Positions 2,362 through 18,988 of a stretch of DNA of 64,000 nt are shown here, one piece after another. A model generated the notes under the pieces. The model worked only from the letters and a program-made list of their open reading frames with translations. It was not told the origin of the DNA and ran no database searches. The DNA comes from a virus (taxonomy: Duplodnaviria; Caudoviricetes): the IMG/VR virus record IMGVR_UViG_3300009183_004565. One strand, given 5' to 3'. Each line of letters starts with the position of its first letter. Position 1 is the first letter of the stretch. Both the position numbers and the translations under genes were made by a program.

Positions 2362-3002
2362 AATTAATAAAATACTGGTACGCGGACTCTCTAATAGATC
2401 CAGATCAAAAATTTTGGTATCTTCCAATATATAAAAATGCCAGCACTAAGATTACCTCATGTTTAAAAAGAAAGAATTGGGATACACTAATTCGCACCAA
2501 TATAATCAACGAAGATAAGTTTGTTAATAAATCTGTGCAATTTGCAATACTTCGCGACCCATACGAGCGTTGGATCTCTACTTATGTTTCTTATATTAAA
2601 AATCCTATATTTGATCAATCTTCTTTGAATTCTCTGTTAGCATCAAAAAATAAAGATGATTTTGTTGAATTGCTATTTAATCGTGCACCTATTCAAGAAT
2701 TTGATATGTATACCAATTTACAATCTGTAGCACTTTTAGATCATCCAGACTTAAAAAAAATTAACTTTTTTTGGCTCAATGGTCAGACTGGATATCAATT
2801 AAATAAATGGCTTCAGTCTCATAATGAAATAACATCATTGAATAACAGTATAGAAAACGGGATTGATAAAAAAGACCCACTATACCGAGAAGTAATTTCT
2901 TTTTTATTTAATTACAAGAATCATAAAATTAAAAACAAAATAATGGATTATTTACAACCAGACTACGATTTTATAAGCGGAATTAATTTTTATGCAAGAT
3001 AA
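2358..3002 (+). CDS. Sulfotransferase (Sulfotransfer_2-like), copy 3
   Basis: YLPIYKNASTK, LRDPYERWIST, DMYTNLQ, DYDFI. Confidence 0.7.
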   Translation: MKLIKYWYADSLIDPDQKFWYLPIYKNASTKITSCLKRKNWDTLIRTNIINEDKFVNKSVQFAILRDPYERWISTYVSYIKNPIFDQSSLNSLLASKNKDDFVELLFNRAPIQEFDMYTNLQSVALLDHPDLKKINFFWLNGQTGYQLNKWLQSHNEITSLNNSIENGIDKKDPLYREVISFLFNYKNHKIKNKIMDYLQPDYDFISGINFYAR

Positions 3003-4539
3003 TTTAACAAGTAAACAAAATGATTACGCAGTATTCTTACCTGCTATCTCGGGCTTCTATGCAACTTTTATAGGAAAGCAGCGTGTTAACAACGACTATG
3101 TTGACCCTGCACGTTTTCCTGTAGGACTAACTGACTTAGAGCAAATGAATTGGCTTAACAGTCAGCAATCTTGGTTTCCGTATCGCTGGAGTTTGTATTC
3201 AGGTGGTCATGCCAATTTGGATTTAACCAAAGACGATCCAAGCGAGGACATGGTTCGTAAACGCGAACCGGGTACATTCATGTTAGGTGACTCAGGTGGA
3301 TTCCAAATTGCCAAGGGTTTATGGGAAGGTGATTGGAAAGCCAACTCAGGTTGCCCCAAGGCTCAAGGTAAACGCGAAGCGGTACTTAAATGGCTGGATG
3401 GCATTGCTGATTACGGCATGATTCTTGATATACCTACCTGGGTAACTAAAGATCCCAAGGCCAGCGCCGCCTGTCAAATCAAAACAGTTCCTGAAGCTAT
3501 TGCAGCAACAAAGTTTAACAATGAATACTTTATTGCAAACAGAAAAGGCAAAGACAACGGTGGTGCCAAGTTCTTAAATGTGTTACAAGGTTCTACACAC
3601 ACCAATGCAGAATCTTGGTATCAAGAAATGAAAAAGTATTGCGATCCTGCACAGTATCCTGGCAAACACTTTGATGGGTGGGCAATGGGCGGACAGAACA
3701 TGTGTGATGTACATTTAATCCTAAAGCGATTGATTGCATTACGTTACGACAATTTACTACAAGAAGGTGTTCATGATTGGATGCACTTCTTGGGTACTTC
3801 AAAACTAGAGTGGGCATTACTACTCACAGATATACAGAGATCAATACGCCGATATGTTAACCCTTCTTTTACTATTTCCTTTGACTGTGCTAGTCCTTTC
3901 CTTGCTACGGCGAATGGACAAGTCTACCACGAAATTGACCTTACCCCAGGACAAAAATGGTCCTATAGAATGAATCCCAGTGCCGACGATAAAAAATATT
4001 CCACAGATACTCGCAGTTACAAAGACGGCACTATACAAGACGGTTTCTGGAAACATTTTGACGAAAGTCCGATTAGCCAACGTTTACAAATGAAAGATAT
4101 TTGTATATATAAACCCGGCGACCTAAATAAGAATGGCAAGGAAGGCAAGACTTCTTGGGATAGTTTCAGTTATGCATTGCTAATGGGGCATAACGTATGG
4201 ACGCACATTGAATCAGTTCAACGTGCCAATCGTGAATATGATGCCGGCAACTATCCTGCTATGATGCAGTATAGTGGCCCCGGACAAGATAAGTTTAAAG
4301 ATATCATTGATAGTATTTTTGCTGCGCCTGACAAACAAACAGCACTTGATATCGTTGAACATTATAGTAAGTATTGGATGGAAATTGTTGGCACTAGAGG
4401 CAACAAAGGTAAAAAAGCGTTGAATTCTGAAACAATGATGGATGTGCATTTTGAATTAGAAGGCAGTAGTGTTAAAGTAGAGAAGTCCAAGAAAGAAAAA
4501 CCCTTGGCAATTTTAAATCCAGATCTTTTTGAGGTATAA
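2992..4539 (+). CDS. dpdA: tRNA-guanine transglycosylase-like protein, probably DpdA-type 7-deazaguanine DNA transglycosylase
   Basis: TGT motifs GDSGGFQ, MILDIP, WAMGG, HFLG, SFDCASP and late HN; clustered with folE/queD/queE. Confidence 0.8.
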   Translation: MQDNLTSKQNDYAVFLPAISGFYATFIGKQRVNNDYVDPARFPVGLTDLEQMNWLNSQQSWFPYRWSLYSGGHANLDLTKDDPSEDMVRKREPGTFMLGDSGGFQIAKGLWEGDWKANSGCPKAQGKREAVLKWLDGIADYGMILDIPTWVTKDPKASAACQIKTVPEAIAATKFNNEYFIANRKGKDNGGAKFLNVLQGSTHTNAESWYQEMKKYCDPAQYPGKHFDGWAMGGQNMCDVHLILKRLIALRYDNLLQEGVHDWMHFLGTSKLEWALLLTDIQRSIRRYVNPSFTISFDCASPFLATANGQVYHEIDLTPGQKWSYRMNPSADDKKYSTDTRSYKDGTIQDGFWKHFDESPISQRLQMKDICIYKPGDLNKNGKEGKTSWDSFSYALLMGHNVWTHIESVQRANREYDAGNYPAMMQYSGPGQDKFKDIIDSIFAAPDKQTALDIVEHYSKYWMEIVGTRGNKGKKALNSETMMDVHFELEGSSVKVEKSKKEKPLAILNPDLFEV

Positions 4540-4746
4540 ATGTACAAAGCTAAAATTAAACAACTTGAAGAATCTCATCGTGTGTTAAACAAACAGATAG
4601 ACGACATGGAACGTAATCATCCTCATGTTGAAGTTGATCGACTTGCTGAAATGAAAAAGAAAAAACTACTTGTTAAAGACGAAATCAGCCGTCTTAATAA
4701 GTTACAATGGGATCACGATCATGAAACGGTACACGGCGATGAATAG
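4540..4746 (+). CDS. Small coiled-coil protein, YdcH/DUF465-like
   Basis: LEESHRVLNKQI...LAEMKKKKLLVKDEI pattern. Confidence 0.55.
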   Translation: MYKAKIKQLEESHRVLNKQIDDMERNHPHVEVDRLAEMKKKKLLVKDEISRLNKLQWDHDHETVHGDE

Positions 4747-5248
4747 AAACGGACATAACAATGCAAGCCTTTTTGTAGGCACTGAAGTAGAACATACACC
4801 TGCATTTGATTTAAAGACACTATTTGTTGTTGATATACAATCTATAGAATTAATCGAAGCCGCATACCTTGCACATAAATGCGAACACATATACTTTGGT
4901 GCTAATCAAAGTTTTGCACCCAACGGTACTGCTAATTATTTTACTTTATGGGAAGAAATGATTACCCATTTTCTTAAGAAAGATCGTTTGTGTACGTTGG
5001 ATTTTGATGTATCCCATGTTGAATATGTATTGGAATATGGGTTCACCGAATATCATAATTTTATCCCAATGATTTCGGTTAAATTGCCCTATATACAACA
5101 ATTAGGATATAATGCTATAATTAAGCTCGACGATAAAGATTTTAATGCAACCAATCCTGGTGTATGGTGTCATAGTGTACACAAGTTACAAAATCGTCGA
5201 GTGTTCACTGACTGGTCTAAATACACCAAAGACGAGATTATTAAATGA
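4739..5248 (+). CDS. Hypothetical protein between dpdA and the DpdL-like gene
   Basis: Clean ORF overlapping both neighbours. The ATG at 4739 is more plausible than 4670. No family recognised. Confidence 0.6.
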   Translation: MNRNGHNNASLFVGTEVEHTPAFDLKTLFVVDIQSIELIEAAYLAHKCEHIYFGANQSFAPNGTANYFTLWEEMITHFLKKDRLCTLDFDVSHVEYVLEYGFTEYHNFIPMISVKLPYIQQLGYNAIIKLDDKDFNATNPGVWCHSVHKLQNRRVFTDWSKYTKDEIIK

Positions 5249-5673
5249 ATCAAGAACAAAGACAAACAGCAGATAGAATTATAGAACGTGCCGAAAGACA
5301 AATTTGGGTAACTTTTAGGCGCGAAGGTATCCATAAATACCCAGCAGCATTGGAGGAACCACAACTTGCGGATGTATCTTTTCTTGGCTATCCTCATCGC
5401 CATATCTTTCATTTCCGGGTGTCAATTGATGTGTTCCACAATGACCGGGACATCGAATTCATCCAATTCAAACGCTGGCTCGAAGGGCTGTATAGTGCTA
5501 GTACACTCATTTTAGATTATAAAAGTTGCGAAATGATTGCTGATGACTTATATGTCCAAATTGCTAGTAAATTTCCCGGACGTAATGTTATAATCAACGT
5601 GAGTGAAGACGGCGAAAATGGCTGTACTATCACTTACAATACACACCAACCTTATCAATCAATGAAAATTTAA
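5245..5673 (+). CDS. dpdL: T-fold QueD paralogue, DpdL-like (candidate CDG decarboxylase)
   Basis: FLGYPHRHIFHFRV = LxxxHRHxF, plus RDIEFIQFKRWL and SCEMIA; QueD-like size; next to dpdA. Confidence 0.65.
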   Translation: MNQEQRQTADRIIERAERQIWVTFRREGIHKYPAALEEPQLADVSFLGYPHRHIFHFRVSIDVFHNDRDIEFIQFKRWLEGLYSASTLILDYKSCEMIADDLYVQIASKFPGRNVIINVSEDGENGCTITYNTHQPYQSMKI

Positions 5674-5674
5674 T

Positions 5675-6049
5675 ATGGTTAAAGCTCCTCCATGTATAGT
5701 ATTAGGGTGCGGAAGATCTTCTTCTTACATTAATAGAAACCAAGATGGCACAAAAAAATATCGAAATACCTGTAGCAAACATCATAAAACGAATTTAAAC
5801 ATGTCTAAAAAAGATTATTGCGAAAATATTGATGGTCGCCTTGGATTTAAATGTACCACTACTATCTTAGGTCCGTATCAATTACAAGTAGATCACGTTG
5901 ACGGAGATCGTTACAATAACGATCCAAAAAATCTTCAGACTTTGTGTGCTTGTTGTCACGCTCATAAAACGCATAAAGAAAAAAATCATCTTAGACGTTA
6001 CAATAAAAAAATACAAACTACATTTAATTCAATTTTCAACTTTCAATAA
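5675..6049 (+). CDS. Free-standing HNH endonuclease
   Basis: LQVDHVDGDRYNNDPKNLQTLCACCHAHKT (HNH core with CxxCH). Confidence 0.8.
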   Translation: MVKAPPCIVLGCGRSSSYINRNQDGTKKYRNTCSKHHKTNLNMSKKDYCENIDGRLGFKCTTTILGPYQLQVDHVDGDRYNNDPKNLQTLCACCHAHKTHKEKNHLRRYNKKIQTTFNSIFNFQ

Positions 6050-6066
6050 AAATCTAAGGAGCAACT

Positions 6067-6990
6067 ATGCCCCGAGTAAAAAAGTCTGCTGCACTAGATG
6101 CCGAGCACGAAAAACTCATTGCGGTTTTAAAGTTTACACCACGTACCTATAAAATTTCATTGTGGGGATATGGTGGCGAATCTGTTATGGGTACCGTACC
6201 TCGCGAAATCTACGATTACTTTAAACAGCGTAGACTTGATGTTAGTGGCTTTGCATGGGACAGCGACTACGCCGAAGAAAACAATATTCCCGAAGCGATG
6301 TGGCCATTCTCTCCTGGTTCATGGTACGAGTGTGATGATATAGCACATGTCAATGGTGTTGTATTAGATAGTGGCACTGTACACATTGAAGATGAAAACG
6401 GTGACGAAATTCTCCAGTGTGGGATTGATGCTTTCCAAGACGAAGACTGTCCTGAATTAGATTACACAGACGAAACCTTTATTGACGATAAGCCGCCAGG
6501 CACTATAGTATTCATTGGCAACAGTAACGAAAAAGGTACGTTCTTTGAAGGCAGTATTGATCTTAGTGCCCCGTTTGATATCAACAAACTAACTTTCAAA
6601 ATTGAAGACGTAGACGGCAGTGAAGTTGTCTGCGGAATAGAATACGACGGCGAGTCGATTGATAACTATGGTGGCGATACCACTGGCAAGAGTTCAGAAT
6701 TTGGATTCTATGTTGCAGGATCAATGAAGAATGGTAAGTGGGAACGTTATCGTAACGAAGATGATTGCACTTACGAAATGACTGCATGGTTTCCAAAAAA
6801 CACCAAACCTGTGCGCGAAGGTGTTTATGAAATTGATGCAGGTAATAAAGAAAAATGGCCAAACTTTAGTCCAACTACAGCACGATGGACAGGCACACGA
6901 TGGCTCAGTGTCTGGGCAGATGACACTCCCGAAACACCAGAAGTAAAAATAAAACAATGGCGTGGCATTGCCTACGATCCAAACAACTAA
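6067..6990 (+). CDS. Hypothetical acidic protein
   Basis: 307 aa ORF with AGGAG RBS; strongly D/E-rich; no family recognised. Confidence 0.6.
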   Translation: MPRVKKSAALDAEHEKLIAVLKFTPRTYKISLWGYGGESVMGTVPREIYDYFKQRRLDVSGFAWDSDYAEENNIPEAMWPFSPGSWYECDDIAHVNGVVLDSGTVHIEDENGDEILQCGIDAFQDEDCPELDYTDETFIDDKPPGTIVFIGNSNEKGTFFEGSIDLSAPFDINKLTFKIEDVDGSEVVCGIEYDGESIDNYGGDTTGKSSEFGFYVAGSMKNGKWERYRNEDDCTYEMTAWFPKNTKPVREGVYEIDAGNKEKWPNFSPTTARWTGTRWLSVWADDTPETPEVKIKQWRGIAYDPNN

Positions 6991-7012
6991 CCTTAATAAC
7001 TAGGAGAATAAA

Positions 7013-7231
7013 ATGGCCGCAGCATGGCTCAAGAAGTATCTAAAGATGAAACCCGAAGTCAATCAAATCTTTGAAGACCTCGAGAAATACAAAGAGTTTT
7101 GTGTAACATACGGTTACATCTACGACGAGCGTCACTTGTACAACGAAAAAACACCTTGGGGCGAGTTCGAACGTGTACAACGTGGCAAATGGCCCAAGAT
7201 GAATTGGTATGCCAAGAAGGAACGTACCTAA
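7013..7231 (+). CDS. Hypothetical protein
   Basis: AGGAG RBS, 72 aa ORF. Confidence 0.55.
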   Translation: MAAAWLKKYLKMKPEVNQIFEDLEKYKEFCVTYGYIYDERHLYNEKTPWGEFERVQRGKWPKMNWYAKKERT

Positions 7232-7235
7232 TTAA

Positions 7236-7781
7236 ATGAACGTTTTAACTTACGATCATGTACTCCCAACTTGGTTAGAGGAGTCTGGAGAAAATCAGTT
7301 CTATAGATTTCCTTTAGAATATAATCATCGCACAAAAGATGAAAATCCTCCATTTTTTGGTAAGTGTCTATACAACAAAAAAACAGGAGTATATGTTCAA
7401 TCTCCTTATTTTGTAGATGCTTTGTGTGATTGTATTAGGTATGACCTTGTGAATAAAATTGACCCAAGTGCAACATTCAATGAATTTCAAAGAGTGATTG
7501 TAAACGGGCAGATAGGTGGTATGTCTCCTGGTAGACATCCTGACTATGATGATCGTAATATGTGGACTGCTGTTTATTTCCTGTTAGGAAATTCAGGAGA
7601 CCTAGTATTTTATCTTGATAACACTACTAAGAAGATCAAGTTTAGAAAACATAGATTGGTAGTGTTTAATAGTCGTATAGAACACGAAGCACTAGCACCC
7701 AATGAAGGTGATTGGAGAATGAGCATTGGTATCAATTGGTATATGGATACCAAATTTAATGAAATTGTAAAAGGAAAATAA
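7236..7781 (+). CDS. 2OG-Fe(II) oxygenase (prolyl-hydroxylase-like)
   Basis: HxD (RHPDYDD), distal His (IEHEALAP) and RxS (WRMSIG). Confidence 0.75.
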   Translation: MNVLTYDHVLPTWLEESGENQFYRFPLEYNHRTKDENPPFFGKCLYNKKTGVYVQSPYFVDALCDCIRYDLVNKIDPSATFNEFQRVIVNGQIGGMSPGRHPDYDDRNMWTAVYFLLGNSGDLVFYLDNTTKKIKFRKHRLVVFNSRIEHEALAPNEGDWRMSIGINWYMDTKFNEIVKGK

Positions 7782-8974
7782 TGCGTAAATTATGGTATAT
7801 GGGTCTAGAACCCTATAAAGCACGATACACTCTACAGTTACAAGAGTGGAATCGTGCTGTATTTGACCGCCGTGGCATCAACTACGAAATAGTAGAAGGC
7901 GAAACGCTAAGTAACGACCAAGCCATTGTAACCGGACAAGTGCTAGATGCACATGGTCGTACATACTTTGGTATGAGCCAACTGATGAATCTTGTTCGCA
8001 AGATGAAAGCAGGAGAAGTTACCAATGAAGATGTTGTATACTTCGAAGACATGTTTCAACCTGGTATCGAGAGCTTGCCTTATATCATGCAGCAGTGCGA
8101 TCCTGCTATGCGTCCCAAGATTGCTGTTCGTTGTCTTGCACAAAGCATTGACCCAGATGACTTTGTTCATGTCTGGGGCATGCAACAGTGGATGGGGCAT
8201 TATGAAAAGATGGTAGATAGTTTTGCCGATATCGTTCTTGCCAGTAACGAAGAAATGGTTATGCACATGAAGGTTGCAGGATGGCAGGCTCCTGTGTATA
8301 ATATTAGTGGACTGGCATTTGGCAAAGAGGAAGTACGTGGTCGTGTGGCCGGTGCACTAAAGCCATTCCATGGTCGTAAGTATCGTGTGGGATTTGCTGC
8401 CCGATGGGATCAAGAGAAGCAACCAGACTTTTACATGGATCTAATAGAAGAATATCACCGTCGTGCCAGTTTTGTGTTTAATGATTGGCCCAATGTTGAG
8501 TTCTGCGTATTCAGTGGCAGTAAACTAAAAAGCAATAACGACAGTTACATGGCTCGTACTCGACGTATGCAGGCTGAAGGTAAACTTGTCGTTCATGAGG
8601 ACTTGGAAAAAAATGATTATTATAATTTACTCAATGATACTCGTGTGTTATTCAATTGCGCTTTACAAGACTGGGTTAGTAACACTGTCAGCGAAGCCGA
8701 CACTCTGGGATGTAATGTGTTATATCCCGCATATCGTAGTTTTCCTGAGTCTTTTGCTAACGATCATGAAAGACTTTACATTCCTTGGAGTATAGATGAC
8801 GCAATTACTAAACTTAATAAGCTATTGGAGCATCCTCATCCCGGTATGGGCACCATTAGTGATTGGACTGGGGGTACCATTGATCGCATTGTGGACATTC
8901 TAGAAGGCAAGGGCGAACAGTGGCAGCGCATGAGTACCGACTATCGTAAACATACACACGAGCACAAGTATTAA
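7781..8974 (+). CDS. GT-B (GT4-like) glycosyltransferase
   Basis: VGFAARWDQEKQP, YYNLLNDTRVLFNCALQDWVSNTVSEADTLGCNVL (GT4-type C-terminal nucleotide-sugar-binding segment). Confidence 0.75.
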   Translation: MRKLWYMGLEPYKARYTLQLQEWNRAVFDRRGINYEIVEGETLSNDQAIVTGQVLDAHGRTYFGMSQLMNLVRKMKAGEVTNEDVVYFEDMFQPGIESLPYIMQQCDPAMRPKIAVRCLAQSIDPDDFVHVWGMQQWMGHYEKMVDSFADIVLASNEEMVMHMKVAGWQAPVYNISGLAFGKEEVRGRVAGALKPFHGRKYRVGFAARWDQEKQPDFYMDLIEEYHRRASFVFNDWPNVEFCVFSGSKLKSNNDSYMARTRRMQAEGKLVVHEDLEKNDYYNLLNDTRVLFNCALQDWVSNTVSEADTLGCNVLYPAYRSFPESFANDHERLYIPWSIDDAITKLNKLLEHPHPGMGTISDWTGGTIDRIVDILEGKGEQWQRMSTDYRKHTHEHKY

Positions 8975-9948
8975 TGAAAATAGTTATCACAGGAGGATGT
9001 GGCTACATTGGTAGTCACATCGCACGAGCACTAAAACAACACAATGCAGATAATTGTGTATACATTATTGACCGTGTGCGTAGAGATCATACACTTCAAG
9101 ATGTAGACGGCTACCTACACGAAGATTATGCCAGCAAGAACAGTTTGCTATGGATTACGGAACTAGAACCTGATGTTATTGTGCATTGTGCAGGCAGCAG
9201 TCTTGTTGGCGAGAGTATGACCAATCCTGCTGAGTATTATGAAAACAATATTGCAAAGACTATTACTCTATTGTCGCATGTAAAAGATCTACGTAAGAAA
9301 CCTTTGATACTGTTTAGTAGTAGTGCCAGTGTGTACGGCAATCCTGCGACTGTTCCGGTATATGAGTCAGATCCCAAACTGCCTATCAGTCCATATGGTG
9401 TTAGCAAACATGTTACTGAACGACTATTAAGTGACTATCATGCAGCATACGGTGTTCCTAGTGTGTGCTTTAGATATTTTAATGCAGCCGGAGCAGAACC
9501 TTTTGCACATGACCTTGGGCAAGCACCTGGTGCCAGTCATATCGTTGCTAGAATACTAGAAGCCAAACTTGCTGGGAAATCGTTTACGCTTAATGGTGCA
9601 GATTATAACACACCGGATCGTACTTGTATTCGTGATTACATACACGTATGGGATTTGGCTGACGCACACATACGTGCCATTGAGTGGATGAACAATGAGA
9701 ATGAGAAACGTGCTGCAGTGATGAATCTTGGTACTCAACATGGTATTAGCAATCAAGAGATTATTGATTATGTAACAGTAAACTACGGTGGCATTGATGT
9801 TGTAGTTGGGCCAAGGCGCCCCGGAGATCCAGATCGACTTGTTGCTGATGCAAGTGTAGCATATGCTTTATTAAAATGGAAACCTGTCTACTCAACGATC
9901 AATCAAATTGTTGATAGTGCATACAAATGGTATACTCGTGAGCTTTGA
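8974..9948 (+). CDS. galE: UDP-glucose 4-epimerase
   Basis: GGCGYIGSH, FSSSASVYG, YGVSK (YxxxK), RYFNAAGA, IRDYIHVWDLA. Confidence 0.9.
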   Translation: MKIVITGGCGYIGSHIARALKQHNADNCVYIIDRVRRDHTLQDVDGYLHEDYASKNSLLWITELEPDVIVHCAGSSLVGESMTNPAEYYENNIAKTITLLSHVKDLRKKPLILFSSSASVYGNPATVPVYESDPKLPISPYGVSKHVTERLLSDYHAAYGVPSVCFRYFNAAGAEPFAHDLGQAPGASHIVARILEAKLAGKSFTLNGADYNTPDRTCIRDYIHVWDLADAHIRAIEWMNNENEKRAAVMNLGTQHGISNQEIIDYVTVNYGGIDVVVGPRRPGDPDRLVADASVAYALLKWKPVYSTINQIVDSAYKWYTREL

Positions 9949-10522
9949 TCGCATATTGGAGTTTGAACAAGCACTGGCCGAATACACAGGTGCGCCATAC
10001 GCAATCATGACTGATTGTTGTACTCATGCTATTGAGTTGTGTCTAAGATTTCAAAAGCCCACTCATTGTGCATTTACTGCTTTTACCTATCTGTCTGTGC
10101 CAATGACCATGCACAAACTAGGAATTGAGTACAGATTGATTCCCGAAGTATGGACTGGCGAATATCAATTCCACGGAACCACAATTTGGGATAGCGCACG
10201 TAGGCTAGAGCGAGGAATGTATCGAGCAGGACAGATGCAATGTCTCAGCTTCGGTTACACTAAGCCTTTACAAATAGGCCGTGGTGGTGCTATACTGTTA
10301 GACAATGAACAAGCATACAACACTATAACGGAACAACGATATGATGGGCGCAAATTATCAGTTACACCCTGGCAGGAACAAAAAACCTTCATGGTGGGCT
10401 ATCATTATAGACCGACTCCGGAAGAAGCTGCGATTGGATTAATAAAATTGCGCGATGTTAATGAACTGCCTAAATATCACGAATATCCTGATCTAAGAGA
10501 TATTAAAATTATTGGAGAATAA
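9938..10522 (+). CDS. Compact DegT/DnrJ/EryC1/StrS-family PLP aminotransferase-like protein
   Basis: FEQALAEYTG, TDCCTHAIEL, WDSA, SFGYTKPLQIGRGG (PLP lysine). Only ~195 aa. GTG at 9938 is the likely start. Confidence 0.7.
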   Translation: MSFDRILEFEQALAEYTGAPYAIMTDCCTHAIELCLRFQKPTHCAFTAFTYLSVPMTMHKLGIEYRLIPEVWTGEYQFHGTTIWDSARRLERGMYRAGQMQCLSFGYTKPLQIGRGGAILLDNEQAYNTITEQRYDGRKLSVTPWQEQKTFMVGYHYRPTPEEAAIGLIKLRDVNELPKYHEYPDLRDIKIIGE

Positions 10523-11354
10523 GTTGACCACAAAAGAATTTACACCAAATCCAGTATTAAACGAAACACCTGATAAAGAATTTGTTCCTATGGAACTGGA
10601 ATCTATGTATGTGGCTTTACCACAAAAGGTATATGTGAAAGCTGGCGAAGCTGCTGCCGCTAAACAATCATATTTGTCGGATGCTATTCGTGCCAGGATG
10701 AAACGTGACGGTAAAAGATACTGGGCAGGAGATAACATCAGTGACTATCTAGCGGACAGTGACAAAGAACATCTAATCAGCGAAGCCGCAGAAGCATTTG
10801 AACTAGTACTAGACCGTTTGCTGATTGATCGCGAAAATGATCCTAACAGTCGAGGTACAGCACGACGCCTGGCTAAAATGTACTTCAACGAAATAATGGC
10901 AGGTAGATATGAAACGGCACCAGACGCAACGGCTTTTCCAAATGATTCGGAGGAAAGATATGAAGGTATGCTTGTGGTTAGAAGTGAACTTCGCAGTATG
11001 TGTAGCCATCATCACCAGCCCGTTACTGGTGTTGCTTATATTGGTATTATCGCCGCTAATAAACTTATCGGTCTTAGTAAGTATACTCGTATTGCTCAGT
11101 GGTGCGCTCGTCGTGGCACACTACAAGAAGAGCTGTGTAATGATATCGCTAGAGAGATTATGAAGGCCACTGATGCTAAAGATGTAGCAGTATATGTACA
11201 AGCGATACATGGATGTTGCGAAAATCGCGGCATTATGGCACATAGTTCGTTAACTCAAACTACAGTATTAAAGGGAACATTCAAAGATGATCCTCATACT
11301 AAGAAGGAATTCTTCGACAACATTAAACTACAACAAGAATTTGCACCAAGGTAA
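10512..11354 (+). CDS. folE: GTP cyclohydrolase I
   Basis: TARRLAKMY, SMCSHH, GLSKYTRIAQWCARRGTLQEEL, HGCCENRG. Confidence 0.93.
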   Translation: MENKLTTKEFTPNPVLNETPDKEFVPMELESMYVALPQKVYVKAGEAAAAKQSYLSDAIRARMKRDGKRYWAGDNISDYLADSDKEHLISEAAEAFELVLDRLLIDRENDPNSRGTARRLAKMYFNEIMAGRYETAPDATAFPNDSEERYEGMLVVRSELRSMCSHHHQPVTGVAYIGIIAANKLIGLSKYTRIAQWCARRGTLQEELCNDIAREIMKATDAKDVAVYVQAIHGCCENRGIMAHSSLTQTTVLKGTFKDDPHTKKEFFDNIKLQQEFAPR

Positions 11355-11394
11355 TTTGCTCCAACCGCCTTAAATATAAGGTAAAGGAGCAAAA

Positions 11395-11724
11395 ATGTCA
11401 GACGAACAAGAAGAGTTTAAAAAAAAATTACAAGCCCTAAAGCCCAAAAAAAAGAAGTTAGCCGTTCCTGAAGGTTTCTTAGACGATGCTAAAAGTTACG
11501 AAGGCAAATTAGAAGCTGTTAAAATAATCTCAGAGCGAGAAAAAGATCGAGTTATTTTGATATTTAAAAAAATGATTGCACAAGGTAAAGAAGATGCAAT
11601 ACGTATTGAACGAGAAAAACTAGAAGCTAAACGAGCAGCTGAAGCTAAAGAAGCATTAGAAAGAGCAGCAAAGATAGCAAAAGAAAAGTTAGCCAAAAAA
11701 TCATTATTTGGTAAAAAGAAGTAA
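11395..11724 (+). CDS. Basic coiled-coil hypothetical protein
   Basis: AGGAG RBS, K/E/A-rich helical sequence; preceded by TTAAATA box at 11370-11376. Confidence 0.55.
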   Translation: MSDEQEEFKKKLQALKPKKKKLAVPEGFLDDAKSYEGKLEAVKIISEREKDRVILIFKKMIAQGKEDAIRIEREKLEAKRAAEAKEALERAAKIAKEKLAKKSLFGKKK

Positions 11725-11742
11725 ATTCAATTAATCAAGGAG

Positions 11743-11937
11743 ATGTATATGAAACTCAACGACAAGCTAGTAAAATGCAACGATCATTTTACTGTCTATA
11801 TGTACGACAATGGCTATATGGTTGAAATTGGTGGACGTGACGACAACGACGAATGGGTTACTGCCAAAGTTCTTTGCACAGATTTTAAAGAACTAACCAA
11901 TCTTATCGAAGAAGCTACCATAATGGAACGTGACTAA
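11743..11937 (+). CDS. Hypothetical protein
   Basis: AGGAG RBS, 64 aa ORF. Confidence 0.55.
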   Translation: MYMKLNDKLVKCNDHFTVYMYDNGYMVEIGGRDDNDEWVTAKVLCTDFKELTNLIEEATIMERD

Positions 11938-12470
11938 TGAAAAAGTTAATTATCTCGGATGCTGAATTTAAAAAATTAGTTCACAAGCTCTGCAGAGATA
12001 TTGCCAATAGCGATTGGCGACCTGACTATGTTGTAGGTTTAACTCGTGGTGGACTTACTGCTGCTGCCATGATCAGTCATTATTTTGATGTTCCTATGGA
12101 AACATTGAAGCCAAGATCGGAAAGCAATTGCTGGATGGCTGAAGATGCATTTGGATATATTCCAGACGGTCCGCTACGTGAAGGCATAGATAAACGCAGT
12201 GACGCTACATTTAAAAAGAAAATTCTTGTTGTCGATGACATTAACGATACCGGTTCTACACTTGAATGGATACGTGAAGATTGGCAATCAAGTTGTTTGC
12301 CCAACGACGAATCTTGGAAATATGTATGGAACAAGAACGTGCGTTTTGCTGTATTAATCAATAACGAATCCAGTAACTATGAGCATGTGGATTATTCAGG
12401 TCGTAACATTAATAAACTTGATGATCCGTGTTGGGTAGTGTTCCCCTGGGAAAATTGGTGGGAGGCATGA
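11937..12470 (+). CDS. Type I phosphoribosyltransferase (xanthine/guanine PRT-like)
   Basis: VVGLTRGG, PRPP loop ILVVDDINDTGSTL, C-terminal WVVFPWE. Confidence 0.85.
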   Translation: MKKLIISDAEFKKLVHKLCRDIANSDWRPDYVVGLTRGGLTAAAMISHYFDVPMETLKPRSESNCWMAEDAFGYIPDGPLREGIDKRSDATFKKKILVVDDINDTGSTLEWIREDWQSSCLPNDESWKYVWNKNVRFAVLINNESSNYEHVDYSGRNINKLDDPCWVVFPWENWWEA

Positions 12471-12805
12471 TTGCCTTACCGCCAGGCTGTACTGTTACCT
12501 ATGCTGTTTGGGTCGATGTAAATCGACTCACCAACGAAATGGTTGAATGGTATCGTCAAGTTGATGGCAAGGTTTACGAAGATCGTTGGTATGATACTCG
12601 AGGTAGAGAACAAACAGTAAACTACGTGAGTTATGGCAAGAGCAAACGATGCCATCATCATCACAACGGTCAAGGTGGTACTAGGTTACACTTCCACGGT
12701 GATGATGCTAGTGCGGCCAGTATGTTTATATTAAAGTTTTTCAATCACGTAACTAGTAATAATTTACAAGACGTAATGGAACGTCATGCTCACGAGGTTG
12801 ACTAA
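12467..12805 (+). CDS. Hypothetical protein
   Basis: GGAGG RBS then ATG 12467 overlapping the PRT stop. Confidence 0.55.
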   Translation: MIALPPGCTVTYAVWVDVNRLTNEMVEWYRQVDGKVYEDRWYDTRGREQTVNYVSYGKSKRCHHHHNGQGGTRLHFHGDDASAASMFILKFFNHVTSNNLQDVMERHAHEVD

Positions 12806-12812
12806 GTAAATT

Positions 12813-13382
12813 ATGATCAATGTAGGAATATATCTAGAATCTAAGCCATTTAATGATAATTGGCCAAAAATTAAAATCTATCATAACAATAGTCTACTCG
12901 ACGATGTAATTTGTCATCAGTCACTAGAGTTACATTATCAAATTAAACCTAGCGTTGATAACCTTCTCTCAATTGAGATGTACGGAAAAAGATTCGGCGA
13001 TGGCGGAATATATGATGTGGACAGTAACGGACAAGGACAAGAAATTCAAATTAAAGATATTACTTTTGATGATGTGTCAATTGATCACTTGTTGTCAAAA
13101 GTTGAATTTGAAACCCACTGGACTGAACACCAGCTTTCTTCACACAACGAAGAATTTAGATCTAAATATAATAGATATCAATCCAACGGTATGATAGTCT
13201 TTAACGGAAGACTGAATTTTAATTTTTCAACTCCTATATATGATTTTTTAATTGATAAAAAGTATAAAGTTGATCATAACAAAGACATTGCTTATTTTAG
13301 TAACAGCACGGAACTATTTAATTTTCATCTTGGATTAAGTAAATTAGAAGAAATTAAAAAAATTATTACAGAAAATGAATAA
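12813..13382 (+). CDS. Hypothetical protein (predicted beta-rich), partner of the B12 radical SAM gene
   Basis: 189 aa ORF overlapping the next gene; AT-rich like it. Confidence 0.55.
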   Translation: MINVGIYLESKPFNDNWPKIKIYHNNSLLDDVICHQSLELHYQIKPSVDNLLSIEMYGKRFGDGGIYDVDSNGQGQEIQIKDITFDDVSIDHLLSKVEFETHWTEHQLSSHNEEFRSKYNRYQSNGMIVFNGRLNFNFSTPIYDFLIDKKYKVDHNKDIAYFSNSTELFNFHLGLSKLEEIKKIITENE

Positions 13383-14880
13383 AAAAGTTTTAGTATTATC
13401 AGTTCCGCGACTCGAACCACATCGCCCCCCAATTAGTGCTACTCTTGTTGCTACTGTATGCAAAAATCACGGTTGTGATGTTAAGTTACGAGATCTAAAT
13501 ATTGAATTTTATCATTATTGTAAATTAAATAATATAGAATATCAAAAATTTGATCCAATTTGGGATAGATATGTAGAACCATCAAATTTAGAACTATCAC
13601 ATATACACACTCATATAGATAATTTTATTGCAACTGAAGATTTGCATTCTTACGATATCATTATGATCAGTGTATTTGGCTCAAGTAGCCATTACTTCAC
13701 TGAAATGTTATTAAAAAAAATTGCAGTAGATAGATCTTATAAAATTTTATTAGGTGGTTCGGGAGCATTTGTGTCTATTATGAATCGTGGGCATAATTCT
13801 TTTGTTGTGGAGATGCAAAAACAAAATCTAATAGACGATTTTATAAAAGGCGAGTGCGAAGAATCCTTAAAATATTATTTAGACGGTAAAGAATATCCAG
13901 GAATTAATAACTATGATCCTGTGCAGATTGATGATTTAGATTCATTACCGTTAATTGATTATAGTTTTGTTGACTTAGATGCTTATGAATATCTCACTGA
14001 AACTAAAGATGTTTATGTAGAAGGTAGTAGGGGATGTGTACGTAAATGTACTTATTGTGATGTTCAGAAATTTTGGCCAAAATATCGTTTCAGAAGTGGT
14101 CAGCATATTGCACACGAGCTTATTAACAATTACGAAAAATTTGGCATTAAAAAATTTTACTTTACTGATAGCTTAGTTAACGGAAGTTTAAAATCATTCA
14201 ATCAGATGTGCGATATTCTTGCTAATTACCCATATAGCAAAGAAATTAGCTGGGGAGGACAATTTATTTTCAGAAATGAAAGAACTGTGCCACCGGAGCA
14301 TTTTGAAATGATCGCTAAGGCCGGCGGTACTAATACTTTTTACGTAGGAATAGAAACTGGCAGTGATCAAGTTAGAAAACAAATGGGTAAAAATTTTACC
14401 AACGAAGATATTAGTTATCAACTTGAAGAATTTAAAAAGAATAAATTGAAATGTACTTTTTTAATGTTTCCTGGCTATATTACAGAAACTGAAAAGGATC
14501 ATCAAGACACATTAGATATGTTTTTAAGATGGCAAAAGTATGTAGCCAGTGGAACTATCAATGGTTTAGAATTAGGTAGTCCTTTGATAGTTCTCGAAGG
14601 AACCCCACTAGCTAGTATGATTGATGAGTATCAAATTGCATTTTTAGAGAGTGATAGAATTACTACTGGTAATTTCTGGGTATCAAAATTAAATCCAAGT
14701 TTTGATTTTGAGCAGCGAGCTATTAGGCAAATCAGACTATACGAAGAAGCTGCAAAATATAAATGGCCTATTTGGAGATTTGAATCAAGAGCTGAAGAAT
14801 TAAAACAAACTCTAATTAGATTTTATGAAATAAAAGAAAAAAATCCAACATATAAGATAACACCAATTAAAATTAATTAA
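13375..14880 (+). CDS. Cobalamin-binding-domain radical SAM enzyme (class B methyltransferase-like)
   Basis: N-terminal PPIS...DLN B12-binding-type region; EGSRGCVRKCTYCD (CxxxCxxC), FTDSLVNG, GIETGS, PGYITET. Confidence 0.8.
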   Translation: MNKKVLVLSVPRLEPHRPPISATLVATVCKNHGCDVKLRDLNIEFYHYCKLNNIEYQKFDPIWDRYVEPSNLELSHIHTHIDNFIATEDLHSYDIIMISVFGSSSHYFTEMLLKKIAVDRSYKILLGGSGAFVSIMNRGHNSFVVEMQKQNLIDDFIKGECEESLKYYLDGKEYPGINNYDPVQIDDLDSLPLIDYSFVDLDAYEYLTETKDVYVEGSRGCVRKCTYCDVQKFWPKYRFRSGQHIAHELINNYEKFGIKKFYFTDSLVNGSLKSFNQMCDILANYPYSKEISWGGQFIFRNERTVPPEHFEMIAKAGGTNTFYVGIETGSDQVRKQMGKNFTNEDISYQLEEFKKNKLKCTFLMFPGYITETEKDHQDTLDMFLRWQKYVASGTINGLELGSPLIVLEGTPLASMIDEYQIAFLESDRITTGNFWVSKLNPSFDFEQRAIRQIRLYEEAAKYKWPIWRFESRAEELKQTLIRFYEIKEKNPTYKITPIKIN

Positions 14881-14973
14881 TAAATACTGTTCTACACAGC
14901 GGCCTTTCTGGCATTCATCCCGCTTTACAAATTCTGCAAGCCTATGCTAAAATCTTAACATAGGAGAAAAACA
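14880..14973 (+). promoter_or_regulatory. Late-promoter-like box plus structured 5' leader of queD (candidate preQ1-I-like riboswitch)
   Basis: ATAAATA at 14880-14886. Stem AGCGG (14898-14902)/CCGCT (14920-14924) encloses GCC-TTTCT-GGC, then an A-rich linker. CCTATG (14941-14946)/CATAGG (14959-14964) overlaps the AGGAG RBS. Confidence 0.5.
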
Positions 14974-15471
14974 ATGCAACCTGTTGTATATAAATTTACT
15001 AGTACCAAAGAGTATCACGACGCCTTTCCTTGCGCTTACCGGCAATGGCGTGCCGATAGTCATTGTAATCTAATACACGGCTATTCATTTAGTATGAAGT
15101 TCTACTTTGGTACTAACGACTTAGACGTTCGTAATTGGGCAGCTGACTACGGTGGACTTAAAGAACTTAAAAAGATTCTTGAAGATCAATTTGACCACAC
15201 ATTAATTGTAGCCGAGGACGATCCCGAACTTGCAACATTTAAGTTGTTACAAGAACGGAACATGGCCAAGATTGTCATACTACCACGTTTAGGCTGTGAA
15301 GGCCTAGCTGACTCGCTGTACAAATATGTGAATGGTGTTTATATTCCTGATATGTGGGGACCTAGTGAAGCTGAACGCTTATGGTGTTATCGTGTAGAGG
15401 TTAGAGAGACACAAGCAAACATGGCGTACCGAGAAGGTCACCGTGAATGGAACGAGGATCTGTTTGCGTAA
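14974..15471 (+). CDS. queD: 6-carboxy-5,6,7,8-tetrahydropterin synthase
   Basis: HCNLIHGYSF (CxxxHG), DYGGLKELKKILEDQFDH, GCEGLA, VEVRET. Confidence 0.88.
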   Translation: MQPVVYKFTSTKEYHDAFPCAYRQWRADSHCNLIHGYSFSMKFYFGTNDLDVRNWAADYGGLKELKKILEDQFDHTLIVAEDDPELATFKLLQERNMAKIVILPRLGCEGLADSLYKYVNGVYIPDMWGPSEAERLWCYRVEVRETQANMAYREGHREWNEDLFA

Positions 15472-16285
15472 GTTCGTTATACGATGTGCCCGGAATCCGG
15501 ATGGTCAAGAATTCTTAGACTTAGAATTCAATATTCGTCCGGGCTCTTACTCCGGCAAATGGATAGACTGCATACGTAGTGTGGAACACTTACCTCCACA
15601 TCAATACGGATTTCCCAAATGGCTAGAACACGATGCCGGTGTATACGAGCAACGTATTGCAGATGCATTAAACAACAACACAGATATACAAGAGTTTTTA
15701 TTAGACTCTAACATTGATAGAACCGTGATCAATCAAGACTTGGTCAATGCTGTCCATAGATATATTGAGCACAATCATCAACATGCCGCCGAACATCTTG
15801 TGTTACACAATGACATACATTACTTAGAAAGTATTTGGGAAGGTGCAACTGATGTTGTGTTCAAGAAGTTACAGTGGGTACCACCAGGGCTAATAATTGA
15901 CATGACCTTGGATGACTATAAAGAATTTACTACAGAACCATGCACTAACTTTATACAAGACGATTTTAGTCATGTAGGACGTAGTCCACATAACAGTTAC
16001 CTATATCAAGATGACTCCAGTCTGTACACTAGTTGTGTTATACAACATAAAGTTGGTTCAGGTGCTAAATGGTTTATTCCTGATGATAGTCATATCTTTA
16101 AGGACGAACGTGGATTCAGATCGTGGGTCAGTGAACATCAAGCGTTTTTTAAAAAGCAATGGGCGATAGAAACTAATAACGATCCTAGGCTTTGTTTTGG
16201 CCGTATTATTATTGCCGAAGGTGTGGAAGATTATAGTCGGATTGATAGGACATTTGACTTCGTAGTAAAAGCTTTTATTATCTAA
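15443..16285 (+). CDS. Hypothetical protein, His/Glu-motif family (paralogue of 45334-46458 and 47697-48488)
   Basis: VHRYIE...IHYLE; SHVGRSP; FRSW...DPRLCFGRIII shared with the two paralogues. Confidence 0.6.
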   Translation: MNGTRICLRKFVIRCARNPDGQEFLDLEFNIRPGSYSGKWIDCIRSVEHLPPHQYGFPKWLEHDAGVYEQRIADALNNNTDIQEFLLDSNIDRTVINQDLVNAVHRYIEHNHQHAAEHLVLHNDIHYLESIWEGATDVVFKKLQWVPPGLIIDMTLDDYKEFTTEPCTNFIQDDFSHVGRSPHNSYLYQDDSSLYTSCVIQHKVGSGAKWFIPDDSHIFKDERGFRSWVSEHQAFFKKQWAIETNNDPRLCFGRIIIAEGVEDYSRIDRTFDFVVKAFII

Positions 16286-16306
16286 ATATTTGTAGTATAA
16301 TACATT

Positions 16307-17149
16307 ATGTCAAAAATTAAAATTGCAGAGCTGTTTTACAGCATACAAGGAGAAGGTCGTTACATGGGTGTGCCTAGTGTGTTCTTGCGAACATTTGGGT
16401 GTAACTTTAAATGTGCCGGCTTTGGTATGCCTCGAGGACAATTAAGTACAGAGGCAGATTTGGTTGATCCGGAAAAATATAAATTCTACGATAAACTACC
16501 TTTAGTTAGCACAGGTTGCGATAGTTACGCTAGTTGGGATCCAAGATTTAAAGATCTTAGTCCCATGCTCGAAAGCGATGCTATTGCGGATCGTATCATG
16601 GAGATATTGCCTTTTAACGAGTGGCGAGATGAACACTTGGTTATTACAGGTGGAGAACCTTTACTAGGGTGGCAACGTGCTTATCCGGACTTGTTAAATC
16701 ATCCTCGGATGGCAGGACTTAAAGAAATTACCTTTGAAACTAATGGTACTCAAAAGCTAACTCCAGAATTTAAACATTATTTAGGAGAGTGGACTGCTGA
16801 AAACTGGGATAGAGAAGTTACATTTAGTGTAAGTGCTAAACTAAGTTGTAGCGGCGAAAGTAGAGAAGAAGCACTACAACCAGAAGTTGTTTGCGAATAT
16901 CAATCTGTAGGAAATACCTATCTTAAATTTGTTGTAGCAACAGACGACGATGTAGAAGAAGCATTATGGACCGTACAAGTTTATAGACAAGCAGGATTTA
17001 CAGGGCATGTATATCTGATGCCCACAGGTGGTGTTGAGAGTGTGTATGCATTAAACAATCGTCGTGTAGCAGAACTTGCTATGAAACACGGATTAAGATA
17101 CAGCGATAGATTACAAGTACCGCTATTTAAAAATGAATGGGGTACTTAA
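16307..17149 (+). CDS. queE: 7-carboxy-7-deazaguanine synthase (radical SAM)
   Basis: ELFYSIQGEGRYMGVPSVFLRTFGCNFKC...CDS, ITGGEP, FETNGT, SVSAKL. Confidence 0.92.
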   Translation: MSKIKIAELFYSIQGEGRYMGVPSVFLRTFGCNFKCAGFGMPRGQLSTEADLVDPEKYKFYDKLPLVSTGCDSYASWDPRFKDLSPMLESDAIADRIMEILPFNEWRDEHLVITGGEPLLGWQRAYPDLLNHPRMAGLKEITFETNGTQKLTPEFKHYLGEWTAENWDREVTFSVSAKLSCSGESREEALQPEVVCEYQSVGNTYLKFVVATDDDVEEALWTVQVYRQAGFTGHVYLMPTGGVESVYALNNRRVAELAMKHGLRYSDRLQVPLFKNEWGT

Positions 17150-17322
17150 TGGAATCGCATAAAAGAACTATAGCAAGATCAATAGTGTGGAGGATCATTG
17201 CTACGCTAGTAACCGCTATATGGGCAGGATGGTCTGGTGCTATTCTTGCTAACATTGTTTTGACAGTACTACATTACATACATGAGCGTGTATGGTTAAA
17301 AATTAAATGGGGAAGAGAATGA
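17149..17322 (+). CDS. DUF2061-like small membrane protein
   Basis: ESHKRTIARSIVWRIIAT...HYIHERVWLKIKWG; ATG overlaps the queE stop. Confidence 0.7.
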   Translation: MESHKRTIARSIVWRIIATLVTAIWAGWSGAILANIVLTVLHYIHERVWLKIKWGRE

Positions 17323-18391: not shown

Positions 18392-18988
18392 TTATTTCTT
18401 ATATCCTAAATTAGGTTTACCCAACTTAGCTTGGCGTATCTTTTCTTTAGTTTCATCTGATATTGGTCCTTTGATTTTACCTGACCAATGTCCAATTCTG
18501 TTTAATGCCTTACCTGTTTTTGAAATTTTATCTTTTATTTCTTGTGATTTTGGTCCGTGGGATTTGCCTTTGTTTGAAGAGGTACAGCCAGTCATTATTT
18601 GTCGTAAATGCTCTTTTTGTTCTTCTGACATAGGTTTACCTTTGTTATGTGCTGGCTTTGATTTCTTTACACCTTTAAGTAATCCGCTAGTGCCACCGAT
18701 GCCGCCTGCTGCAAGATTCCAACCAATGTGTATTGTCGGTCTTAATTCTTTTTCAAAATCATAACAGGATTCTTCTGTACCAATGTAAATAATATCGTAT
18801 ATTATTTCAGACTCATTATTTTTGATTTCCTCATGCAATCTATAACGTTGTTTTGAACTTTGATGTTCGGTAAATCGTCTTGATGGATCTATAGATACCC
18901 CAATATATCCATCATTCCAAGAATGATTTGATAAATGGATCCAATAAACTGAACAGATAAATTTTTGATGTAAATACATTGCTGACAT
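18392..18988 (-). mobile_element. Free-standing GIY-YIG homing endonuclease with NUMOD3-type tail
   Basis: SVYWI...GYIGVSIDPSRRFTEH, E...N, and basic repeats HNKGKPMSEEQKEHL / SQEIKDKISK / SDETKEKIRQAKLG; antisense to flanking genes. Confidence 0.8.

Follow-up and report, generated by a model that had tools for sequence, protein, structure and literature searches.

The gene queD of an uncultured phage is preceded by an RNA leader which, judged from comparative sequence, is an H-type pseudoknot of about 50 bases, built of two crossing helices that we call P1 and P2. It lies in a stretch of 64,000 nucleotides (the window, by which we mean the whole stretch analysed) from a 144-kb IMG/VR virus record (IMGVR_UViG_3300009183_004565; completeness estimate 41%), the complete relatives of which are giant phages of 353-383 kb from lake and freshwater metagenomes. 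On balance, and with modest confidence, we read the leader as the aptamer of an undescribed preQ1-I-like riboswitch of freshwater giant phages, with a longer P2 and working as an ON switch. The parts of the leader, and the two genes between which it lies (ORF, open reading frame; SAM, S-adenosylmethionine), are as follows.

14881-14973 (93 nt), + strand: the spacer under study, between a 501-aa ORF and the queD ORF
14898-14902, + strand: 5′ strand of P1, AGCGG, pairing with 14920-14924
14903-14909, + strand: loop L1, CCUUUCU; 4-9 nt in relatives, where it begins YCUU and its second C and the next U are nearly invariant
14910-14917, + strand: 5′ strand of P2, GGCAUUCA, within the P1 loop, pairing with 14935-14942
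14918-14919, + strand: loop L2, UC, 2 nt, adjoining the P1 3′ strand on its 5′ side
14920-14924, + strand: 3′ strand of P1, CCGCU, the partner of 14898-14902
14925-14934 (10 nt), + strand: the A-rich linker L3, UUACAAAUUC
14935-14942, + strand: 3′ strand of P2, UGCAAGCC, in the tail; also the putative anti-Shine-Dalgarno (anti-SD) strand
14974-15471, + strand: queD, encoding a QueD-like 6-pyruvoyl-tetrahydropterin / CPH4 synthase (PF01242, 3.6e-14; phrog_2389, 2.3e-35)
13375-14880: the upstream gene, a 501-aa ORF of the B12-type radical SAM kind

Pairing and covariation in the queD leader

Homologous phage queD leaders show both conservation and covariation. In an alignment (A1) of 149 distinct IMG/VR leaders homologous to the window's own, the whole structure is paired in 93.3% of cells, against 86.0 ± 0.4% in shuffled alignments, and 107 cells carry a double change where shuffling gives 34.9; none of 500 shuffles attained the observed values of pairing and double change. 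When the partners were slid by 1-3 columns, as a second control, pairing dropped to 30-45%. Seven pairs of P1 and P2 together show compensatory change, and G.U pairs are tolerated, which fits an RNA of the + strand.

Helix P1 is paired in 99.5% of cells, with compensatory changes at three of its five pairs (GC/CG, CG/AU/UA and AU/UA), such that AGCGG/CCGCU is replaced in relatives by ACCGG/CCGGU, AGAGG/CCUCU, AGUGG/CCACU or UGCGG/CCGCA; RNAalifold recovers this helix unaided from the homologous leaders. P2, in which 88% of cells are paired, has compensatory changes at four of the seven pairs counted. More than ten distinct complementary types of loop and tail occur, and the two match one another in a contingency table: GGCA with UGCC, GGCG with CGCC, GGUG with CACC, GGGC with GCCC and, further, AUGGCAU with AUGUCAU and ACGUCAU with AUGUCGU, as well as a change of CA/UG to CG/CG. 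When loops and tails were swapped between leaders, the mean was -6.3 kcal/mol for own pairs, -5.05 for foreign tails and -3.25 for shuffled loops; the support from this swap test is only modest because part of P2 is common to all leaders.

An earlier reading of the window, made without database searches and called here the sequence-only reading, had described most of these parts: an ATAAATA box (14880-14886), an AGCGG/CCGCT stem (14898-14902 and 14920-14924) around a 17-nt loop (14903-14919), an A-rich linker TTACAAATT (14925-14933), and a CCTATG/CATAGG hairpin (14941-14946 and 14959-14964) whose 3′ arm covers the AGG of the AGGAG Shine-Dalgarno (SD) sequence, ahead of an ATG at 14974. All of these are present. 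Its suggestion that a GGC in the loop forms a pseudoknot with a downstream GCC is supported by the covariation seen in the 149 leaders; the other register that it offered, loop GCA with a downstream TGC, is paired in 64.1% of cells against 63.6% in shuffles and has no compensatory change. For its inner GCC/GGC mini-hairpin there is some covariation, at one pair: position 14903, in L1, covaries with 14911. This pair could reflect the mini-hairpin or a triple in a helix groove; a three-way table of the bases of L1 and of the two P2 strands gave no clean base-triple rule.

Some of the most strongly conserved bases are not paired at all. C14919, directly 5′ of the P1 3′ strand at the junction of P1 and P2, is the same in 149 of 149 sequences; in L3 the columns of A14927, A14929, A14931, U14933 and C14934 are invariant; and, inside P2, U14915 stands opposite C14937, both of them invariant. 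Invariant bases of this kind, left unpaired, are typical of a ligand pocket or a tertiary core.

Linkage to queD and distribution

The leader was sampled in two ways, by a search with the QueD protein, which gave 80 IMG/VR loci (87-93% amino-acid identity to the window QueD), and by a search with a 19-nt motif pattern that made no use of the gene, which gave at least 119 further loci among the matches listed. A covariance model of the motif was run on the 80 QueD-selected loci, on four complete giant-phage genomes and on the window's own record. Of the 80, 76 carry the motif ahead of queD; a contig end truncates three of the remaining loci, and the last one (L078) is discussed below. Conversely, among the 119 pattern-selected matches listed, 116 have QueD 40-410 nt downstream of the motif, in two more it follows after about 960 nt, past an inserted 297-aa ORF, and one ends at a contig edge, so that queD lies downstream in 118 of 118 evaluable cases. 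The QueD proteins of the pattern-selected loci are 36-93% identical to the window QueD, and the presence of the motif at identities as low as 36% suggests that the leader lasts through much divergence of the protein.

No homologue of the window's upstream gene occurs in any of the 80 QueD-selected relatives, but their last 90 nt or so ahead of queD resemble one another strikingly. Averaged over pairs, identity is 0.758 in the leader core, against 0.511 at third codon positions of queD and 0.306 in the 5′ flank. The covariance model found one strong match per genome in the four complete giant-phage genomes and in the window's own record (E 1e-15 to 1e-22, the rest being noise), and the 64-kb window itself holds a single copy.

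Going by such matches, the motif is present in hundreds of uncultured freshwater giant phages. Among GenBank phages there was no match by megablast of 13375-17200 or by blastn of the leader; the window QueD is about 50% identical to phage QueD proteins, and its best GenBank match is the QueD of Acidovorax phage ACP17. Across 185,579 genomes of bacteria and archaea there are 32 matches to the 19-nt pattern, against about 52 expected by chance (our estimate), and only one of the 32 (L213) scores as the full motif, at 77 bits. This is NZ_JBBAKG010000001.1, a 183-kb contig of a Haliscomenobacter metagenome-assembled genome (MAG), syntenic with positions 13900-16600 of the window (radical SAM gene, leader, queD, queE); either the contig of a giant phage has been binned into the MAG of a bacterium, or the match gives a clue to the host. 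Ten of the pattern matches are in Firmicutes, and these are not PreQ1 riboswitches. Our literature searches found no description of the motif.

The interval between motif and gene is variable in some relatives. In L163 and L171 the 297-aa ORF is inserted about 60-950 nt after the motif, and in L131/L062 a 251-aa ORF about 30-785 nt after it, in each case between the ribosome-binding site (RBS) of the leader and queD. Each of these inserts looks like a mobile gene of the homing-endonuclease type that has captured the regulated start site. QueD N-termini also differ widely, with extensions of 20-60 aa (L108, L192, L009, L022, L020, L038 and others), and L120 has a separate ORF of 131 aa between leader and queD. 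In relatives with variable N-termini the leader is always ahead of the first start codon.

Translation control and the candidate ligand

Downstream of the pseudoknot lies what could be an expression platform, and upstream of it a putative promoter.

14880-14886, + strand: promoter-like box ATAAATA, its core TAAATA at 14881-14886, 11 nt before P1
14941-14964, + strand: SD hairpin, CCUAUG (14941-14946) with CAUAGG (14959-14964), in both the minimum-free-energy and the centroid fold
14962-14966, + strand: the SD sequence AGGAG; the queD start codon is at 14974-14976
14924-14953, + strand: a sigma70-like match, TTTACA, an 18-nt spacer and TAAAAT, with TG before the second hexamer, as in an extended -10 promoter (10/12 matches)

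Between the P2 3′ strand and the SD downstream of it are 19-22 nt (19 in the window), and two kinds of platform follow that strand. In variant 1, to which the window belongs, C14941 and C14942 are shared by the end of the P2 3′ strand and the start of the SD hairpin, the arms of which are almost invariant, with a few changes of G-C to A-U or G.U at the innermost pair. In variant 2 the P2 3′ strand runs on as GUC(A/G)UC, able to pair with a GGAGAC or GGAGGC SD. The platform sequences of the two variants are unrelated.

The accessibility of the SD was modelled with ViennaRNA in 150 leaders, as the mean unpaired probability of its bases. This was 0.24 in the free RNA, 0.24 with P1 formed and the loop blocked, and 0.65 when the P2 3′ strand was sequestered as well; when an equal length of L3 was blocked instead, it was 0.26. 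Sequestering the P2 3′ strand raised SD accessibility in 131 of the 150 leaders and lowered it in four, and the shift was seen in both platforms (0.24 to 0.67 in variant 1, 0.22 to 0.60 in variant 2). We infer from these models that formation of the pseudoknot would expose the RBS and so act as a translational ON switch. The competition between pseudoknot and RBS hairpin, which the sequence-only reading had proposed, is thus consistent with the overlap of the strands and with the modelled accessibility.

Under the favoured reading, transcription from the upstream TAAATA box would yield a leader RNA that carries the pseudoknot. Without the pseudoknot, the P2 3′ strand would pair at the RBS (14941-14946 with 14959-14964) and dampen translation; a ligand would lock the pseudoknot, remove the anti-SD strand and free the SD; and queD would then be translated, perhaps with downstream genes up to queE.

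The ATAAATA box is likely to be the start signal of the leader transcript. TAA[AG]TA occurs within 20 nt upstream of P1, mostly at 5-11 nt, in 111 of 147 unique leaders, and 16 more have a TAnAnT, -10-like box, in some cases with a -35-like TTGACA upstream. That putative promoters of different types stand at the same distance from P1 across relatives argues for an RNA leader rather than a DNA-level role for the stem, and their ending 5-11 nt before P1 would place the motif at the 5′ end of the mRNA. In the window, TAAATA, often as CTAAATA, lies 20-40 nt before many + strand starts (for example at 324, 5218, 10471, 11371, 14881, 16283 and 22840) and may be the late-type promoter core of this phage; the full T4-type TATAAATA has no occurrence in the 64 kb, where 8.7 would be expected.

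Several other genes of the window bear on what the leader might sense.

10512-11354: GTP cyclohydrolase I
11937-12470: purine-type phosphoribosyltransferase
15443-16285, + strand: a 280-aa ORF between queD and queE, with a 29-nt overlap at the queD stop; it matches nothing in Pfam or PHROG and has no credible atlas lead
16307-17149, + strand: QueE-like radical SAM gene (phrog_2076, 1.4e-52)
2992-4539: a 515-aa ORF, whose only lead is language-model similarity to viral clusters resembling tRNA-guanine transglycosylase (TGT) and DpdA
18392-18988, - strand: a homing-endonuclease-like ORF (GIY-YIG/NUMOD3) just past the que genes on their downstream side, with a GIY-YIG Pfam score below the curated cut-off

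Between 7236 and 10522 are a 2-oxoglutarate oxygenase-like ORF, a glycosyltransferase, an epimerase and a DegT-like fragment, and the interval 2992-17149 as a whole is a QueC-less gene set of the 7-deazaguanine type. The genes of 15443-17149 may be co-transcribed with queD, and the TAAATA box at 16283 may give queE a promoter of its own. Neither QueC, the absence of which from the window had already been pointed out, nor a Pfam-recognisable TGT was found in the window's record or in the four complete relatives; from the lack of a QueC Pfam match (QueF was not searched for) these phages probably do not make preQ0 or preQ1 themselves. Phages that encode DpdA, FolE, QueD and QueE together with a proposed decarboxylase (DpdL) of 7-carboxy-7-deazaguanine (CDG) have been described, and the DNA of phage phiST carries 7-deazaguanine.

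The invariant junction C14919, which we take to correspond by position to the ligand-pairing C in the solved structures of preQ1-I riboswitches, suggests a ligand with a guanine-like face. By this analogy, the ligand of the candidate aptamer would most likely be a planar base with a guanine-like Watson-Crick face, for which 7-deazaguanine, CDG, guanine set free by base exchange and a pterin intermediate are candidates; if the logic is ON, a precursor or a by-product would be a more natural ligand than the end product. We propose, as a tentative extension of the favoured reading that we hold with less than even confidence, that the leaders form a candidate new class confined to giant freshwater phages, which senses a compound of the 7-deazapurine pathway, or guanine released when G is swapped for 7-deazaguanine in DNA, and which turns ON the first committed enzyme of a QueC-less DNA hypermodification pathway, being in this respect an ON relative of the preQ1-I fold that has acquired a new ligand.

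Several observations weigh against an ON riboswitch. A single-sequence nested fold of the leader is no better than those of shuffles (z = 0.03), although folding of this kind is uninformative because the structure is a pseudoknot. For the window leader itself the model gives a small SD shift (0.23 to 0.38). Covariation is almost lacking in the SD hairpin and in the anti-SD helix of variant 2, conserved as both are, which leaves energy models and the overlap of strands as the basis of the ON logic. A P2 of 7-10 positions may be stable without a ligand, and an ON switch would be unusual for a biosynthetic gene if the ligand were the end product. In the relative L078, queD appears to begin 4 nt past the stop of the preceding gene and to be leader-less (46 nt of upstream sequence, L078:1-46), which may represent a natural deletion of the element. 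The internal sigma70-like promoter match, if used, would start an mRNA downstream of the pseudoknot. Finally, in an Rfam scan of 14700-15100 there was no PreQ1 match at E <= 10, and no Rfam riboswitch model matches.

Alternative readings and known systems

The main rival reading, which we consider unlikely, is that the leader is a translational operator bound by a phage or host protein, perhaps QueD itself, or else a constitutive, ligand-free structure that stabilises the mRNA or fixes the level of translation. The covariation and the linkage to queD would fit this equally well, the P2 duplex (mean about -6.3 kcal/mol) is long enough to fold unaided, and L078 seems to manage without a leader. 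There is a precedent in the mRNA leader of T4 gene 32, where a pseudoknot is an autogenous translational operator that serves as the nucleation site for the single-strand-binding protein; as is proposed for the queD leader, it lies at the 5′ end of one phage mRNA and controls translation of that gene. However, there is no sign of a protein partner for the queD leader, nor a known candidate for one, and QueD, for its part, is a small enzyme of metabolism. The small size of the element, with its many invariant unpaired bases at the junction, and an architecture near that of a known metabolite aptamer also argue against this reading, and the overlap with the anti-SD strand has been kept in two unrelated platforms, which would be pointless in a constitutive structure.

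The known aptamer in question is that of the preQ1-I riboswitch, and it is rather improbable, in our view, that the leader is a divergent but genuine member of that family, binding preQ1 or preQ0 and thereby reading the queuosine-precursor pool of the host. Known preQ1 switches repress. The relatives with an AGAGG/CCUCU stem resemble what we take to be the Bacillus aptamer. The likeness to preQ1-I (RF00522; types I-III, PMC10622847) extends to a small H-type pseudoknot with a 5-bp P1, a P2 formed by the loop with the 3′ tail, an A-rich L3, a conserved C before the P1 3′ strand, a place ahead of a GTP-to-7-deazaguanine pathway gene, within its 5′ leader, and, as predicted for the queD leader, an action on translation. 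It is this shared topology, together with the linker UUACAAAUUC after P1, which resembles preQ1-I tails, and the membership of queD in the same pathway, that would speak for a genuine preQ1-I element.

There are also differences. P2 of the leader spans 7-10 positions (8 in the window, up to 10 in variant 2) against 3-4 in preQ1-I, and contains the invariant U facing a C; L2 has only 2 nt, while L1 has 4-9 nt. In preQ1-I the SD lies in or next to P2, which gives an OFF switch, whereas here it lies outside P2, the P2 3′ strand is the anti-SD strand, and the predicted response is ON rather than repression. The leader motif, moreover, occurs in giant phages without detected QueC, which are probably not makers of preQ0 or preQ1. 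The PreQ1 model gave no match at E <= 10 in five relatives, leaders with the AGAGG/CCUCU stem included, and on the whole record only six weak matches of at most 14.6 bits, none of them at the leader, the gathering threshold of RF00522 being 39 bits; at the Rfam gathering score the whole window held no relevant family, PreQ1 included. Two weak Rfam matches, to MIR390 (E 0.28) and to freshwater-2 (E 1.6, mostly over SD and ATG), are at the level of chance. The leader is therefore not a member of the Rfam PreQ1 family as defined, though it is preQ1-I-like in architecture. Of the suggestion in the sequence-only reading that this is a phage variant of preQ1-I, the topology, the A-rich linker and the place in a queD leader hold; membership of the Rfam family does not, and the leader departs from known preQ1 switches in the length of P2 and in its predicted ON logic.

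We regard it as very improbable that the signal is one of DNA only, with the stem a terminator of the upstream gene, TTTACA-18-TAAAAT the queD promoter and RNA structure irrelevant: the 10/12 promoter match with its TG, and a -10-like box GCTATAAT that is the conserved loop of the SD hairpin in variant 1, are in its favour, but the match is absent from variant 2, which has no -10 box, most relatives have promoter-like boxes directly ahead of P1, and neither the covariation of P1 nor that of P2, between the P1 loop and the promoter spacer, is explained by a promoter. The internal match may be coincidental or, in variant 1, a second start by which the pseudoknot is bypassed. As to the terminator, no terminator-like site was found in 14600-15200, and the stem persists among the 80 QueD-selected relatives, in which the upstream gene is a different one, so we reject it.

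Should the leader bind a metabolite, one could learn from it how the making of a modified base is timed or dosed by a giant phage. The known range of the preQ1-I pseudoknot fold would then come to include ON logic and probably a new ligand, and the leader would serve as a small natural sensor of a compound of the 7-deazapurine, guanine or pterin kind. Phages use 7-deazaguanine DNA-modification pathways against restriction, and the phage 7-deazaguanine literature that we searched makes no mention of a riboswitch for such pathways. A small element, with hundreds of natural variants, clean covariation and a single gene, is an unusually tractable candidate.

Riboswitches native to phages are, to our knowledge, rare. 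Phage-borne riboswitches such as the glutamine riboswitches of cyanophages are metabolite-responsive leaders on auxiliary metabolic genes, and belong to classes first defined in bacteria; the queD motif, in contrast, occurs in no bacterial genome searched except the phage-like MAG contig, and in no GenBank phage.

In general plan, the leader may be compared with SAM-II, SAM-V, preQ1-II and guanidine-III, all of them small aptamers of the pseudoknot kind: their loop bases run along the grooves of the helices, and whether the pseudoknot forms settles access to the SD. They differ from the leader in gene context and show no sequence or model match to it. A further difference lies in how the SD is controlled: in these riboswitches it is hidden in the pseudoknot, whereas the pseudoknot of the queD leader is predicted to remove an anti-SD strand and so to set the SD free.

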